64,000 nt of DNA from contig CALVXC010000001.1 in the NCBI GenBank assembly GCA_944368805.1, positions 7,885 through 71,884 of the forward strand. Direction: 5' to 3'. Shown piece by piece: positions 57,447-63,540 of this stretch. The notes beneath the pieces are model-generated. The model saw nothing but the letters and a program-made list of their open reading frames with translations, was not told where the DNA came from and did no database searches. Position 1 is the stretch's first letter. Each line of letters begins with the position of its first letter. A program made the translations under genes and the position numbers. The DNA comes from an uncultured Bacilli bacterium (GTDB lineage Bacteria; Bacillota_I; Bacilli_A; RF39; UBA660).

Positions 57447-57475
57447 TTGACTTTTAGGATAATTATCTTTATAAT
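57447..57475 (+). promoter_or_regulatory. strong consensus sigma-A promoter (TTGACT-17-TATAAT) 40 nt downstream of the recG stop
   Basis: -35 at 57447-57452, 17-nt spacer, -10 at 57470-57475. No protein gene follows within 250 nt. Confidence 0.6.
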
Positions 57476-57482
57476 GATAATA

Positions 57483-57585
57483 GCGTGATTGATTCACGCG
57501 GACACTCTTACGGTTATATAATGTGAGAGTGCTCAACCAAAACCCCCTGAAGGAGCCTTATGGCTCCATTTTTGTTTGTTTAAGT
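57483..57585 (+). ncRNA. candidate 100-nt small RNA (promoter, three hairpins, intrinsic terminator)
   Basis: Hairpins cgtga-ttgat-tcacg (57484-57498) and cactct...agagtg (57503-57533), then terminator ggagcc-ttat-ggctcc followed by attttTGTTTGTTT (57552-57584). The terminator stem carries an SD-like 'gaaggag' and a 7-codon ORF ATG gct cca ttt ttg ttt gtt taa (57560-57583). Confidence 0.45.
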
Positions 57586-57680
57586 TTAAAATAATTTATT
57601 ATAGGTTTTCTAAAGTTTAAAAAAGTTTAATTTAGTTCTAATTAGTTTAAATATTGTGGGTGGTTAAAAATATAAAAATT

Positions 57681-57731
57681 AACCTAATTATACCAAAAAG
57701 CGTTGACCAAATGGTATAATTAGGTTAAAAT
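57681..57731 (+). promoter_or_regulatory. abiEi promoter with a perfect 15-bp inverted-repeat operator (aacctaattatacca ... tggtataattaggtt) flanking the -35 TTGACC
   Basis: Left arm 57681-57695 and right arm 57712-57726 are exact reverse complements. TTGACC at 57703-57708, 17-nt spacer, TAAAAT at 57726-57731. AbiEi proteins are known autorepressors that bind inverted repeats in their own promoter. Confidence 0.6.
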
Positions 57732-57741
57732 TATATTGGTG

Positions 57742-58290
57742 ATGAAAATGTTATATAATCATAGCGAAATAAAAAATAAATATAAAACAACTTATCAAAT
57801 ACGAAAAGCAATAAGTAATAAAGAAATATATAAAATAGAAAAAGGTATTTATTCAGATAATCCAGAAGTGCATTATTTAGCAATTTTAATGAAAAAGTAT
57901 CCTTATGCAGTTATTACAGGAGAATCAGCATATTATTATTATAATTTTACTGATATAATACCTTCTAAAATATATTTAGCTACACGTGATGTTAATACAA
58001 GAATACATGATAAAGACATTAAACAAATTCGTATGAGGGACAATCTTTATAAATTAGGCAGTACTCAAATTATATATGAGGGAGTAATTATAAATATTTT
58101 TGATAAAGAGCGTTTATTAATTGATTTAGCAAGAAATAAAAATAAAATTGGATATGATTTATATAAAGAAATTATATTTAATTATAGAAAAATTGCTGAT
58201 AAATTGGATGTAAGTAAAATAGAAGAATATTTACAATATTTTTCAAATAGTGATAAGATACTTGGAATATTACAAGATGAGGTGTTTTAA
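57742..58290 (+). CDS. abiEi: AbiEi-family type IV toxin-antitoxin antitoxin / transcriptional autorepressor
   Basis: About 180 aa. N-terminal wHTH '...IYKIEKGIYS', then 'YPYAVITGESAYYYYNFTD' matching the AbiEi 'A.I.G.SAL..HGL.D' signature. Stop TAA overlaps the next ATG (TAATG). ATG 57742 or 57748 is the likely start; the ORF-track TTG 57736 is an extension. Confidence 0.7.
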   Translation: MKMLYNHSEIKNKYKTTYQIRKAISNKEIYKIEKGIYSDNPEVHYLAILMKKYPYAVITGESAYYYYNFTDIIPSKIYLATRDVNTRIHDKDIKQIRMRDNLYKLGSTQIIYEGVIINIFDKERLLIDLARNKNKIGYDLYKEIIFNYRKIADKLDVSKIEEYLQYFSNSDKILGILQDEVF

Positions 58291-59111
58291 TGAATTTAAG
58301 TAAATCAGTAGAACAATATATCCAGATTGGATATAAAAAAGATGATGCTATATCTAAGGTTGCGCAAGATATAATTCTTTTAAAAATATCAAAGAGTAAT
58401 TTTTCAGAGTATATTACCATCAAAGGTGGAGTTGTAATGCACTCTATATCTAGAGATAATCGTAGAGCTACTAGAGATTTAGATATGGATTTTATTAAAT
58501 ACGCTTTAGAAGATAACTCTATTCATAATTTTATATTAAAATTAAATGCAGTAAAAGATGGTATTAGTATTGAAATAGTAGGTAAAATTGAAAAATTGCA
58601 CCATCAGGACTATGATGGAAAGAGAGTTAATATAAGACTAATCGATTCTAATGAATTTATAATAAATACCAAATTAGATATTGGAGTTCATAAATTATTT
58701 GATATAGAACAAGATAACTATTGTTTTGATTTAGGCATTTTTAAAGAAAATGTTAATTTACTTATAAATTCAAGGGAACAAATTTTTGCTGAAAAATTAA
58801 AGTCATTACTAAAATTTGGAATAACATCAACAAGATATAAAGATGTATTCGATTTTTATTATTTAATTAATAATGAAAAATTAGATAAAAATAAATTGTT
58901 AAAATATATAGATATTCTTATTTTTGAAGATTCACTCATGAAAGAAAATGATTTTGAAGGTATAATAACTAGAATTAATTTGATTTTTAAAAATAGTAGA
59001 TATAGATCTATGTTAAATCAAGCAAACAATAATTGGTTAAATTTACCTGTTGATATTGTTATAAATAATATTTTAGAATTTCTATCATCTTTAGAAGTGG
59101 TGAGTGTCTGA
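58290..59111 (+). CDS. abiEii: AbiEii/AbiGii-family nucleotidyltransferase toxin (DUF1814)
   Basis: 273 aa. N-terminal NTase motif 'IKGGVVMHSISRDNRRATRDLDMDF' (hKGG...R.T.DLD). Size and position immediately after AbiEi with a 1-nt overlap. Confidence 0.7.
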   Translation: MNLSKSVEQYIQIGYKKDDAISKVAQDIILLKISKSNFSEYITIKGGVVMHSISRDNRRATRDLDMDFIKYALEDNSIHNFILKLNAVKDGISIEIVGKIEKLHHQDYDGKRVNIRLIDSNEFIINTKLDIGVHKLFDIEQDNYCFDLGIFKENVNLLINSREQIFAEKLKSLLKFGITSTRYKDVFDFYYLINNEKLDKNKLLKYIDILIFEDSLMKENDFEGIITRINLIFKNSRYRSMLNQANNNWLNLPVDIVINNILEFLSSLEVVSV

Positions 59112-59112
59112 T

Positions 59113-61479
59113 ATGAGTAAGGAGATAATCAATTTAATAAATGAAAAAGAAGAACAAATAAAAAAGCTACAAGAAGAAATTGCAATTTTAAAAAAGAAAC
59201 TAGAAATTCTTGATAAATCAGATAAATCAACAATCATATTTTCTAAAGAAGAAAAAGTGAATCTATTTATGAATTATTTTAGGGGGAGAGATGATACATA
59301 CCCATATTTATCTATTGATAAAAATAATCCAAGCAAGAAATATTATATTCCAGCTTGCATTAATGAATGGAAACAAGGAATTTGCAATAAGCTTATGAAA
59401 AGGCCTTGCAAAACTTGTCAATATAGAGAAAATAAACCATTAACATATGAGGTTTATCAAAAACATTTAGAAGGACAAATAATAGGTATTTATCCACTTT
59501 TAGATGATGAAACATGTTATTTTCTTGCTTTTGATTTTGATGATAAATTAGAAGAAAAAAATATAAAAGATGATGTACTTGCTTTTTGGAGTGTTTGTGA
59601 AGAGTATCATGTTCCAATATCAGTTGAGAAAAGCAGATCAGGTAAAGGATTTCATATTTGGTTATTCTTTACTGAAAGAGTAAAAGCAATTACAGCTAGA
59701 AAATTGGGTAGTCTTCTTTTATCTAAAACTATGGAAGTAAGGGATAATTTAAAAATATCTTCTTTTGATAGAATGTTTCCTAGTCAAGACTTTTTACCAA
59801 AAGGAGGATATGGTAATTTAATTGTGTTACCATTTCAAAAAGAACCAGCTAGCTATGGAAATACTTTATTTATTGATAAATATTTTATACCTTATAAAAA
59901 CCAGTGGGAATATCTAAAGAATATTAGAAAAATATCTAATGAGGATGTATATGATTTGATAAAAATATTATCCGATAATACAATAGATGTTAGTCATGAG
60001 GATTTAAATATTAAAGAAGAAATAAAAAGTAAAAAGAAAAATAATTTTAAATTTCCAAAATCTTTGGATGTTATATTAGATGATATGATTTATATTGACA
60101 AGAAAAATTTGTCAGCAGGAGCAAAAAATTGTTTTAGACGATTAGCATCTTTTGCAAATCCAGAATTTTATAAAAAACAAAGACTTCGTTTATCAACTTA
60201 TAATGTCCCTATGGTAATAGATTGTAGTAGTGTAGATGATAGATATATTAAATTACCACGAGGAACGTATGAGTATTTATTAGACATTTGTAACGAAAAA
60301 AAAGTAAAATTGAAAATAAAAGATAAAAGAAATCAAGGATACAAAATAAACATAAATTTTAATGGTAGTTTACGTGATGAACAAGAAATGTGTTTAAATA
60401 GATTATTGAGTTATGATAATGGAATTTTACATGCACCAACTGGATTTGGAAAAACAGTAGTGGCTTGTAATTTAATTGCAAAAAAGAAAGTTAACACATT
60501 AATTATTGTTCATAGTTTAAGTTTATTAAAACAATGGCAAGAAAGAATTAAAGAATTTTTAGGTGTTGAAAATGTTGGTCAAATTGGAGGAGGAAAAAAT
60601 ACAATTACCAATGTAATAGATGTTGCTAGTATTAAAACTTTGTGGAATAAAGGTGAATTAAATGAAATAACCAAAAATTATGGAATGATTATAATTGATG
60701 AATGTCATCATTTAGCCGCTTTTACTTATGAACAAGCAGTAAACAGTATTAACTCTAAATATGTCTATGGTTTTACAGCAACCCCTAATAGAGAAGATGG
60801 ACATAGTCCAATTGTTAAAATGCAATGCGGTGATATTAGATATGAAGTTGATTTTAAAAAGTTTAATGAAAATCTTGGCATTCCTATGATAGTTAAAGTT
60901 AAAGAAACTTATTTGAAATTTGCTGATCCATTAATAAACGATTATACAATTAATGAAATAAATAACTTAATTACGAAGGATATGGATAGAAGTGAAATGA
61001 TTTTTAACGATGTCAAAAATGAATATAAGAAAGGAAAAAATATTCTTATATTAACTGAGAGAATAGAACATTTAGAGTATTTGAGTTCTAGAATGCAAAA
61101 AATTACAAATAATGTATTTGTATATAAGGGTGGATTAGGTAAAAAAATATTAAAAGAATATGATGAAAGTAATAGAATGATATTAAATCAGAACAAAAAT
61201 AAAATTATTTTAGCAACAGGATCTTATATTGGTGAAGGATTTGATGATTCAAGTTTAGATGTTTTATTTTTAACCATGCCTATTTCAGGAATTACAAAAG
61301 TAACCCAATATACAGGAAGGCTACATAGAAAGAATGATAATAAAAAAGAAATCATTATTTATGATTATGTTGATAAAAATTTTAAACAAACAAGAAATAT
61401 GTTTGAAAAACGAAAAAAGACATATGTAAAATTGGGCTATAAAATAATAGATGAAAGATCTGTACAATTAACAATATAA
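59113..61479 (+). CDS. fusion protein: N-terminal coiled-coil, Cys4 cluster, archaeo-eukaryotic primase (PrimPol) domain, central linker domain, C-terminal XPB/RAD25-like SF2 (DEAH) helicase
   Basis: ATG 59113 lies 1 nt after the abiEii TGA (translational coupling); the ORF track uses GTG 59104. AEP motif I 'YFLAFDFDDK' (DxD), motif II 'SRSGKGFHIWLFF' (sGxGxHhh), motif III region 'SFDRMFP'. Upstream 'CINEWKQGICNKLMKRPCKTC' is a 4-Cys cluster. Helicase Q-like 'LRDEQEMCL', motif I 'HAPTGFGKT', motif II 'IIDECHH', motif III 'GFTATPNREDG' (XPB-type), motif VI 'TQYTGRLHR'. Confidence 0.7.
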   Translation: MSKEIINLINEKEEQIKKLQEEIAILKKKLEILDKSDKSTIIFSKEEKVNLFMNYFRGRDDTYPYLSIDKNNPSKKYYIPACINEWKQGICNKLMKRPCKTCQYRENKPLTYEVYQKHLEGQIIGIYPLLDDETCYFLAFDFDDKLEEKNIKDDVLAFWSVCEEYHVPISVEKSRSGKGFHIWLFFTERVKAITARKLGSLLLSKTMEVRDNLKISSFDRMFPSQDFLPKGGYGNLIVLPFQKEPASYGNTLFIDKYFIPYKNQWEYLKNIRKISNEDVYDLIKILSDNTIDVSHEDLNIKEEIKSKKKNNFKFPKSLDVILDDMIYIDKKNLSAGAKNCFRRLASFANPEFYKKQRLRLSTYNVPMVIDCSSVDDRYIKLPRGTYEYLLDICNEKKVKLKIKDKRNQGYKININFNGSLRDEQEMCLNRLLSYDNGILHAPTGFGKTVVACNLIAKKKVNTLIIVHSLSLLKQWQERIKEFLGVENVGQIGGGKNTITNVIDVASIKTLWNKGELNEITKNYGMIIIDECHHLAAFTYEQAVNSINSKYVYGFTATPNREDGHSPIVKMQCGDIRYEVDFKKFNENLGIPMIVKVKETYLKFADPLINDYTINEINNLITKDMDRSEMIFNDVKNEYKKGKNILILTERIEHLEYLSSRMQKITNNVFVYKGGLGKKILKEYDESNRMILNQNKNKIILATGSYIGEGFDDSSLDVLFLTMPISGITKVTQYTGRLHRKNDNKKEIIIYDYVDKNFKQTRNMFEKRKKTYVKLGYKIIDERSVQLTI

Positions 61480-61634
61480 GAAGAATATCAACCACCCATT
61501 CAACCACCAAAATAGGAGATTTTTATTTTAAAGTTATAAACTTGTTTAAACTTTTGTAAACAAAAATCCTTTGAAAATAAAGGATTTGATAATATAAAAT
61601 AGTTTAGAGTACGTGATATAAGTTTGCCCCCTGA

Positions 61635-61668
61635 AATCCCAGCCGAGAGGCTGGGATACTTTGTTTAT
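61635..61668 (+). terminator. intrinsic terminator (atcccagcc-gaga-ggctgggat followed by actttgtttat)
   Basis: 9-bp GC-rich stem, unusual in this genome, preceded by 'ccccctgaa' and followed by a T-rich tract. Sits 150 nt after the PrimPol-helicase stop. A second hairpin aaatccttt-gaaaat-aaaggattt lies at 61565-61588. Confidence 0.6.
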
Positions 61669-63164: not shown

Positions 63165-63540
63165 ATAAGCTAAAGAAGGAGCTAATGTAATTATTGTTGG
63201 AAGACATGAATAAACATTAAAACAAGCAGCTAATATAGATGGTAAAATTTCTTATGTAGTTGGTGATATTACCGATAGTGACGTTGTTTTAAAAGTAGTT
63301 AATTTAGCTAAAGATAAATTTGAGGAAATTGATATTTTAGTTAATAATGCAGGATGGTGTCCAGTTCAACCAATTTACCTGAAGATGAAGAAAGAAAACA
63401 TGAGGAAAGTATTACTAGTAATATTCCATTTAAACGTTTTGGTACTCCTGAAGAAGTAGCCAATGTTGCTTTATTTTTAGTAAGTGACGAAGCAAGTTAT
63501 GTTAGTGGTTCTATTTATTCTGTAACTGGTGCTTCATAAA
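63165..63540 (+). pseudogene. short-chain dehydrogenase/reductase (FabG-like) remnant: 5'-truncated, in-frame stop, about 115-codon internal deletion
   Basis: 'AKEGANVIIVGRHE*TLKQAANIDGKISYVVGDITD...[13 protein letters not shown]' corresponds to SDR residues 25-90. It then jumps, with a frameshift, to '[54 protein letters not shown]', the SDR C-terminus. The GxxxGxG N-terminus and the S-Y-K catalytic core are absent. Confidence 0.7.

Follow-up and report, generated by a model that had tools for sequence, protein, structure and literature searches.

An AbiE pair directly upstream of a primase-polymerase fused to an XPB-like helicase in an uncultured Bacilli genome

What is a two-gene toxin-antitoxin (TA) pair doing directly ahead of a gene for a DNA primase fused to a helicase? 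The question is raised by a locus on contig CALVXC010000001.1 (assembly GCA_944368805.1) from an uncultured Bacilli bacterium, of which a stretch of 64,000 nucleotides, referred to here as the window, was analyzed. According to the listing of open reading frames (ORFs), positions 57748-61479 (+) of the window are filled by three tightly packed genes encoding AbiEi, AbiEii and an archaeo-eukaryotic primase (AEP) joined to an XPB-like superfamily 2 (SF2) helicase. The original prediction, made from the DNA letters and their translations, proposed either a new tripartite immunity system or the replication module of a decayed integrative element retained by AbiE addiction. On balance, the locus is probably a composite in which two autonomous conflict modules are co-transcribed, with AbiE acting as a regulatory, addiction or back-up front end.

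Three tightly packed genes and their products

The predicted layout of a tight three-gene operon is confirmed, and both junctions are exact in the sequence. ORF1 (abiEi) and ORF2 (abiEii) overlap in the pentanucleotide TAATG, in which the TAA at 58288-58290 shares a base with the ATG at 58290-58292. The TGA of ORF2 (59109-59111) is separated by a single T (59112) from the ATG of ORF3 at 59113. On reading of the sequence, a Shine-Dalgarno-like GGTG(A)/GAGGTG lies 5-8 nt 5′ of each of the three starts. A terminator scan, which returned five terminator-like sites in total against 0.6 expected in shuffled sequence, placed no + strand site between the three genes. ORF1 has two alternative longer starts (57736 and 57742); its 180-aa form agrees with an end-to-end match to the PADLOC AbiEi model and with the gene call on contig L012. 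ORF3 had been given as 790 aa, whereas it comprises 788 aa from the ATG and 791 aa if a GTG at 59104 is used as the start. An alternative genetic code (TGA = Trp) was considered due to an in-frame TGA in a related locus, L019, and rejected for the window. Here TGA ends 5 of the 35 long ORFs, so code 11 applies, and conserved genes are intact under it.

A sigma-70-like promoter precedes abiEi (Table 1). Promoter-like sites are not enriched over shuffled sequence in DNA of 26% GC, the GC content of the window, and such a call alone carries little weight. The −35 box is bracketed by a perfect 17-nt inverted repeat, a candidate AbiEi operator whose layout is that of the published AbiEi operator as described in a review. 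The repeat is kept in locus L002, where it is extended to 21 nt. In L019 a different 8-nt repeat has the same layout around the −35 box, as read from the printed sequence (the repeat finder, with a minimum arm of 9, reported none). The three genes are presumably co-transcribed, and AbiEi would autoregulate the operon.

Both AbiE assignments are upheld by profile and structure-linked matches. ORF1 matches the PADLOC AbiEi model PDLC02238 over its full length (2.5e-61) and the Streptococcus agalactiae AbiEi structures 6y8q and 9hlo_A at 2.6e-6 (6y8q over aa 24-172). A Pfam profile search returned no match for ORF1, including to AbiEi_4, the family that the original prediction had named. ORF2 matches Pfam AbiEii (PF08843, 1.3e-17), the PADLOC AbiEii model end to end (6.6e-105) and PDB entry 9hlo_B (1.6e-10). 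Alignment with 9hlo_B, the AbiEii of S. agalactiae, shows that G46-G47, D63xD65, T61 (= T65) and D188 (= D192) are all kept; in the S. agalactiae enzyme, T65 is the phosphoacceptor and D192 is catalytic, according to a preprint (10.64898/2026.01.19.700257). The same preprint places AbiE among type VII TA systems rather than type IV, the class from which the original prediction had started. It also gives a pyrimidine nucleotidyltransferase (NTase) specificity for S. agalactiae AbiEii, and the label ‘GTP-dependent’ for AbiEii is therefore uncertain.

ORF3 is correctly described as a PrimPol fused to an XPB-like helicase. The AEP domain covers nearly the whole of Pfam family PF22548 (Table 1) and contains a Cys4 cluster (C82, C91, C99, C102) and the catalytic D141xD143, the stretch S174-R-S-G-x-G-x-H181, and D219. 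The helicase matches ResIII at 7e-28 (aa 419-560, ResIII/DEAD in Pfam) and contains Walker A (GFGKT, 446-448), DECH (529-532), R560-E-D562 and motif VI (Q732..R736..R739, QYTGRLHR). Across a 38-sequence alignment (A1), the AEP carboxylates, SRSGxGxH, Cys4, Walker A, DECH and motif VI are invariant or nearly so. The XPB RED motif is retained as well, since TATPNREDG of ORF3 aligns with TATFEREDG of Archaeoglobus fulgidus XPB (alignment to 6p66 and 6p4f). Matches to NCBIfam models of XPB, RadD and CRISPR-associated PrimPol all fall below threshold. For repair_heli_XPB the score is 73.4 bits (1.4e-20) against a cut-off of 610 bits, for which reason the helicase is considered XPB-like and not an XPB orthologue; for PrimPol_Msp it is 77 bits against a cut-off of 200. 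A PADLOC model named ‘PrimPol, CAS-associated’ matches at 3e-75, and sequence matches in the PDB include CAPP (7nqd/7nqf, 1.7e-11) and XPBII (6p4f, 1.7e-22). An AlphaFold2 model of ORF3 (pLDDT 89.7, pTM 0.83) has XPB/Ssl2 and archaeal XPB as its top Foldseek matches (E 1.6e-21), and its modeled AEP part resembles the CAPP Prim-Pol domain (target TM 0.80, rmsd 3.4 Å).

Recurrence of the arrangement and separability of its modules

ORF3 belongs to a large and widely distributed family. More than 3,146 proteins match it below E 1e-10, essentially full-length matches come from more than 150 cluster representatives (clusters at 50% identity), and relatives occur in at least 595 species genomes from many phyla. 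Full-length copies with ~40% identity are carried by 97 plasmids, and a homologue is present in 876 of 5,426 (16%) complete Escherichia coli genomes, O157:H7 included, where NCBI names it ‘TOTE conflict system archaeo-eukaryotic primase domain-containing protein’. No experimental work on the AEP-XPB-like helicase family was found in the literature, and the family is not listed as a defence system in PADLOC 2.0. The architecture had been put forward as novel. A literature check of limited extent found no published description of AbiE combined with an AEP-helicase, whereas ORF3 itself was already catalogued through PF22548 and its NCBI name. The components, AbiE and ORF3, are both of known kinds, and it is their combination that appears to be new.

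The composition and surroundings of the family point towards biological conflict. In 28 of 75 relatives the C terminus is extended by 100 aa or more, with a PLD-like nuclease (PLDc_2) there in the examples scanned; other relatives have N-terminal PNP_UDP_1, GNAT or flavodoxin-like domains. Fusions of the PLD, PNP and GNAT type typify conflict proteins rather than replication initiators. The neighbours are mainly restriction-modification, TA and defence genes, among them XamI, Eco57I, N6_Mtase, PIN, Fic, RhuM, SLFN_AlbA_2, CBASS and DpnII. Mobile-element genes also surround the family, most members of which are solo genes.

Decay is frequent in this family. The helicase has in-frame stops or frameshifts in 5 of 80 loci (L019:6001-8331, L022, L040, L062 and L077), AbiEii is frameshifted in L029, and the helicase is truncated in L160 and replaced by IS3 in L164. 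Such turnover of helicase and AbiE is typical of defence genes.

How regularly AbiE accompanies these helicases was assessed in the best 80 of the at least 595 species genomes (L018-L097). An upstream ORF on the same strand was found in 62 loci, and 12 of these 62 ORFs match Pfam AbiEii. Counted by locus, 11 named loci among 66 judgeable ones are linked to AbiEii, which leaves ~83% of AEP-helicase loci without AbiE. No other upstream family exceeds two matches, so AbiEii is by far the commonest, and all-against-all clustering identified it as the only sizeable recurring upstream family. Downstream, AbiEii is not among the top 25 families reported for 66 ORFs, a result taken as 0/66, and the resulting polarity is pronounced (12/62 versus 0/66, Fisher p = 9e-5). 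AbiEi precedes AbiEii in 10 of the 11 named loci, none having been found upstream of the AbiEii of L092. Where starts could be placed (L027, L031, L051, L067 and L092), AbiEii and the helicase overlap or are at most 7 nt apart; in the other linked loci the AbiEii stop lies within ~200 nt of the start of the tblastn match. The linked loci are labeled as Bacilli/Tenericutes, Acidobacteria/Terriglobales, Desulfosarcinaceae, Gammaproteobacteria, Zixiibacteriota and Verrucomicrobia, that is, at least five phyla. The arrangement singled out in the window therefore recurs, and the opposite case, primase-helicases always beside integrases or relaxases and never with AbiE, does not describe the family, in which linkage of that kind is inconsistent.

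These observations make it highly unlikely that two unrelated defence genes simply adjoin in a variable region, with no common transcription or function. Defence and TA genes do cluster, and both modules are mobile and autonomous. However, chance adjacency does not account for the upstream bias, for the overlaps and 1-7 nt gaps seen at the junctions in the window and in related loci, for the uninterrupted run of the three genes in the terminator scan, or for the co-divergence of the two modules within clades. Within clades, AEP identities of 87% and 63% are accompanied by AbiEii identities of 79% and 56%, and AEP identities of 79-89% by AbiEii identities of 68-81%. A global co-evolution of AbiEii with the AEP-helicase was also considered and dropped, as deep pairs show no correlation (Spearman 0.02-0.16) and co-divergence is confined to clades. 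In one case the AEPs of two loci (L027 and L079) are 68% identical and yet preceded by AbiEii proteins of unrelated subfamilies; the architecture has thus outlasted an exchange of AbiE.

The two modules also occur apart. The AEP-helicase P0026 (70% identity to ORF3) has no upstream AbiE and is followed by a Schlafen/AlbA_2 gene, with CBASS nearby; AbiE is likewise missing upstream of P0028, also a solo AEP-helicase, and upstream of the E. coli homologues, and in P0068 the AbiE pair lies downstream of the AEP-helicase instead of upstream. A reverse census covered 80 metagenome loci with AbiEii at 50-100% identity, loci being judgeable when at least 600 nt followed downstream. AbiEi is directly upstream of AbiEii in 78 of the 80, and the contig begins inside AbiEii in the other two. 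A helicase starts within 400 nt of AbiEii in 7 of 71 judgeable loci, and any AEP match is present in 10 of 80. After dereplication at 90% identity, 3 of the 19 lineages of the window's AbiEii subfamily have the helicase and 16 have none. At L164, IS3 has replaced all but the first ~80 nt of the helicase gene, next to an AbiE pair 97.6% identical to that of the helicase-bearing locus L165. Pairing leaves protein lengths unchanged: the solo helicases comprise 781 aa (P0026) and 792 aa (P0028) versus 788 aa for ORF3, and the AbiEii of the AbiE-only locus L102 has 273 aa, as in the window. No domain change is visible in either partner when AbiE and helicase are combined. The helicase-free lineages contain plain AbiE pairs with a variable next gene, several of them defence-type or defence-candidate genes. 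These include a DRT-like reverse transcriptase (4-nt gap), a PDC-M54A-like NTPase (10-nt gap) and a PDC-S07-like NUDIX protein; metallophosphatase, type IV secretion system (T4SS), ParA and glycosyltransferase genes are found in the same position.

Two of these other arrangements deserve description. In the cluster L115, L118-L120, an AbiEi-AbiEii pair ~63% identical to that of the window is followed after 4 nt by a 333-aa reverse transcriptase (L120:4827-5825). This enzyme resembles defence-associated reverse transcriptases (PADLOC RT 7.3e-31; Drt3a and UG4 ~1e-18), and the locus would be an AbiE-plus-reverse-transcriptase operon analogous to the AbiE-plus-AEP one. Downstream of the helicase in L189, a second and different AbiEi_4-AbiEii pair is followed after 10 nt by a gene for a P-loop NTPase of at least 706 aa that runs off the locus (L189:6785-10370). 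This large gene was considered as part of a second trio, which was rejected, as its product is not an AEP-helicase and resembles the phage-defence candidate PDC-M54A.

Facultative pairing bears directly on the first of the originally proposed readings, an integrated three-part immune system. In such a system the AEP-helicase would sense invading DNA or replication intermediates and AbiEii would be the abortive arm that arrests translation. ORF3 activity or its product (primers, DNA:RNA hybrids or displaced single-stranded DNA) might release AbiEii from AbiEi, or AbiEii might modify AEP products. What speaks for this proposal is the strong, polar and tightly coupled association with AbiE in at least five phyla. 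Unrelated AbiE subfamilies at the same position ahead of close helicases look like selection for the architecture, the window encodes a short form without the PLD nuclease present in about one third of relatives, so that an effector in trans is conceivable, and in L037 AbiEi alone is directly upstream of an AEP-helicase-PLD gene. The tripartite proposal is at odds, however, with the autonomy of both modules in most genomes, with the 16 of 19 AbiEii lineages that have no helicase, with the presence of AbiE ahead of unrelated cargo genes and with the loss of the helicase from L164 while AbiE persists. Nor is AbiE linkage enriched among nuclease-less helicases (7 of 47 short versus 2 of 28 long forms, p = 0.47), and the idea that AbiEii replaces the missing PLD nuclease is unsupported. 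Because the trio is facultative and its partners show no change in length or domains on pairing, an obligate three-part system is not favored. An integrated immune system is accordingly regarded as possible but unlikely. More doubtful still is a true three-component system in which the helicase-primase would read out foreign DNA or stalled replication and, by its nucleic-acid product or its conformation, switch on AbiEii as a tRNA-modifying toxin, with the repeated recruitment of unrelated AbiE subfamilies reflecting this coupling.

At L037 (2324-5921), an AbiEi-type gene (Pfam AbiEi_4, 2e-13) without AbiEii lies 44 nt upstream of the gene for the 977-aa AEP-helicase-PLD protein. The arrangement hints that AbiEi may regulate the helicase gene.

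Several points also weigh against the composite of two autonomous modules that we favor. The helicase-side census covers only 80 loci, whose immediate neighbours were identified with a crude ORF caller, and there is redundancy among the metagenome loci. The window cassette itself lies between housekeeping genes, recG and a queuosine-salvage gene, and not in a defence island. S. agalactiae AbiE gave E. coli no protection against 32 coliphages, and an abortive-infection function of any given AbiE pair is therefore not guaranteed. A defence role for the AEP-XPB-like helicase is argued from genomic context and domain fusions. Furthermore, recurrence, polarity, coupling and AbiE swapping exceed the expectation for a simple defence island and could reflect a real functional dependence between the modules.

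Mobility and surroundings of the cassette

The cassette has been found in more than one genomic setting. The block common to a second context (Table 1), which represents the transferable unit as far as it can be delimited, is 86.6% identical over 3898 nt to L002-L004 and L006, where the flanks differ (NUDIX upstream, IS1595 downstream). L005 matches over 3820 nt from window position 57719, its upstream end being N-masked. In the lineage of the window the trio is old: the window and L189 show the same succession of recG, a small RNA (sRNA)-like element, AbiE and the AEP-helicase, colinear with 67% nucleotide identity. Another trio adjoins a T4SS coupling protein (L186), a homologue in L187 adjoins a serine recombinase and ParB, and the E. 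coli O157:H7 homologue (WP_000233452) is cargo of an integrase/AlpA/YfjI/Gp2 island that has no AbiE. Homologues are located on 119 plasmids, 49 of which are conjugative, and the host plasmids range from 47 kb to 1.4 Mb.

Table 1. Coordinates of features at the locus, in window positions.
Feature	Position	Strand	Description or support
Block common to second genomic context	57642-61532	+	blastn; transferable cassette as far as delimitable
abiEi (ORF1)	57748-58290	+	180-aa antitoxin/repressor
abiEii (ORF2)	58290-59111	+	273-aa DUF1814 nucleotidyltransferase toxin
ORF3	59113-61479	+	788 aa from ATG; AEP (primase-polymerase) fused to XPB-like SF2 helicase, short form without PLD nuclease
AEP domain of ORF3, aa 47-281	59251-59955	+	Pfam AEP-TOTE PF22548, 1.9e-81, profile positions 1-229 of 230
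SF2 helicase core of ORF3, aa 419-772	60367-61428	+	ResIII, XPBII 6p4f, alignment A1
Sigma-70-like promoter	57703-57731	+	TTGACC-17-TAAAAT, 10/12 matches
Candidate AbiEi operator	57679-57728	+	Perfect 17-nt inverted repeat, arms 57679-57695 and 57712-57728, 16 nt between, −35 box bracketed
Terminator-like hairpin	57552-57567		Upstream of operon; terminator scan
Terminator-like hairpin with T-rich tail (ACTTTGTTTA)	61636-61657	+	Downstream of operon

The second of the original readings considers ORF3 to be the replication module of a decayed integrative or conjugative element, held in place by AbiE addiction. AEP-helicase fusions are classic replication proteins of plasmids and integrative and conjugative elements (ICEs). 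The plasmid-borne homologues and those beside the T4SS coupling protein, the recombinase with ParB, and the O157:H7 island genes are in keeping with such an origin, and so is the stabilization of plasmids by AbiE described in a review. Nevertheless, the helicase is of the XPB-like SF2 type with a RED motif, not a superfamily 3 (SF3) or DnaB-type enzyme, and relatives are fused to PLD nuclease, PNP or GNAT. Recombinases and transposases are few among 128 flanking ORFs, for which no Rep or relaxase family is listed, and no full-length homologue occurs in 50,697 phage records, where the helicase half alone finds matches. An ORF and profile scan of the window found no integrase or relaxase, the position beside recG is shared across lineages, and the host plasmids are large and probably possess replicons of their own (the replicon type was shown for one only). 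A decayed replication module consequently fits poorly and is the least probable of the explanations considered, although retention by AbiE addiction, the other half of that reading, is plausible.

Two sets of repeats were considered as evidence of transposition and dropped, since neither is kept in the second context L002: the terminal inverted repeats GTGGGTGGTT/AACCACCCA, and 25-32-nt repeats at 57568-57637 and 61536-61567. Exact look-ups of RecG and Q_salvage, made for an empty site, gave only cassette-bearing or truncated contigs.

A candidate sRNA gene is located between recG and the cassette (57447-57573, +), with counterparts at L189:2297-2480 and at ~4330-4560 of L019. It comprises a strong promoter-like site (TTGACT-17-TATAAT, 11/12 matches), a pair of hairpins, a terminator and a conserved C-rich motif that is single-stranded (CAACCAAAACCCCCTGAAGG). 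The layout of motif and terminator recurs in L189 and L019; on reading of the printed sequence, both upstream hairpins also have counterparts in L189, with stems that differ in sequence. The flanking sRNA-like elements gave no match to any Rfam family. The 9-mer CCCCCTGAA has two copies only in the 64-kb window, at 57543-57573 and 61627-61665, which flank the cassette. A terminator-like hairpin comes after both of them, and the L019 cassette is flanked in the same way. The copies may represent the 3′ ends of paralogous sRNAs, attachment-like repeats or insertion sequence target sites.

A strain contig 99.9% identical to the window (L001) carries a putative IS200/IS605-type element (L001:3005-3429, corresponding to window position 61636) inserted right after CCCCCTGAAA. 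The assignment of type derives only from the N-terminal ORF sequence (MKITKAYQFRFYPTKEQ...), which is TnpB-like. The left-end hairpin of this element, GGAGCCTTATGGCTCC, is identical to the left-flank hairpin of the window cassette at 57552-57567. Downstream of Q_salvage, a 61-aa ORF (63354-63539) matches short-chain dehydrogenases (adh_short_C2) at their C-terminal end only and is probably a gene remnant.

A possible mechanism and comparison with known systems

As a composite of two conflict modules, the locus could operate as follows. AbiEi would bind the inverted repeat around the −35 box, repress the operon and keep the AbiEii NTase inactive. By analogy with the S. agalactiae homologue, inactivation may proceed through antitoxin-induced autophosphorylation of the Thr aligned with T61, as the preprint describes it for that species. 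Once AbiEi is lost or overridden, AbiEii would block translation, most likely by nucleotide addition to tRNA 3′ ends, as the MenT/AbiEii literature suggests. The XPB-like motor, which combines a RED motif with an N-terminal domain resembling a damage-recognition domain, would open or track invading DNA. The AEP would prime and extend on the exposed strand, so that replication is derailed or an aberrant product is formed, and the PLD nuclease of longer relatives would cut DNA. In this composite, the helicase would be the direct DNA-targeting arm and AbiE a portable front end: it would bring a tightly autoregulated promoter, ensure that the cassette is retained post-segregationally and stand by as an abortive-infection back-up.

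If ORF3 does have antiphage activity, its pairing of a primase-polymerase with a motor that opens DNA would represent an unusual way of countering viruses, and the recurrent, polar coupling to AbiE offers a concrete handle on it. The same AbiE subfamily also precedes a DRT-like reverse transcriptase and further candidate defence genes, which raises the wider question of whether TA pairs are portable front ends, with a regulatory or guard role, for other genes of defence. In a three-component system, if true, the sensing of DNA would be coupled to an arrest of translation. More is to be gained from the AEP-XPB-like family as such, whose members can be tested directly in E. coli.

Among known systems, ORF1 and ORF2 are homologous to AbiE (COG5340/DUF1814) of Lactococcus lactis and S. 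agalactiae and to MenAT of Mycobacterium tuberculosis. They share the gene order, the overlapping stop and start, the inverted-repeat operator at the promoter and, judging from the aligned sequences, the NTase motifs, phosphoacceptor Thr and catalytic Asp of AbiEii. In contrast to the two genes of classical AbiE, a third gene begins here 1 nt after the abiEii stop, apparently on the same transcript.

For ORF3, the AEP domain belongs to a Pfam family named after TOTE systems, which are defined by TPR, OB, TBP and Effector components (Aravind, Iyer and Burroughs 2022, as cited in bioRxiv 10.1101/2025.09.15.676423). No TPR, S1/CSD (OB) or TBP gene is present between recG and Q_salvage in the window, and TPR, OB and TBP are likewise missing from the families listed (top 25 per scan) for 128 neighbour ORFs of 80 related loci. 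On the TOTE definition given in the citing preprint, the window locus is therefore not a TOTE system, and the partner of ORF3 here is AbiE. The closest solved fold to the AEP of ORF3 is that of CAPP from Marinitoga (PDB 7nqd-7nqf and 7p9j), from which ORF3 differs in having an XPB-like helicase as fusion partner; there are no cas genes at the window locus.

The helicase region (aa 315-772) finds its best structural and sequence match in XPB/Rad25 and archaeal XPB-Bax1, with the RED motif kept, and long ORF3 relatives with a fused PLD nuclease parallel the helicase-nuclease pairing of XPB-Bax1. Unlike XPB, ORF3 is fused to a primase-polymerase and stands in a bacterial mobile or defence context without TFIIH or nucleotide excision repair partners. 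The replicative primase-helicases of plasmids and ICEs use an SF3 or DnaB-type helicase, whereas that of ORF3 is SF2 and XPB-like. DRT7, finally, is a precedent: in this abortive antiphage system an AEP-type primase-polymerase domain acts as the synthetic arm. Its AEP is paired with a reverse transcriptase rather than a helicase, and the comparison with ORF3 made here concerns the AEP fold.

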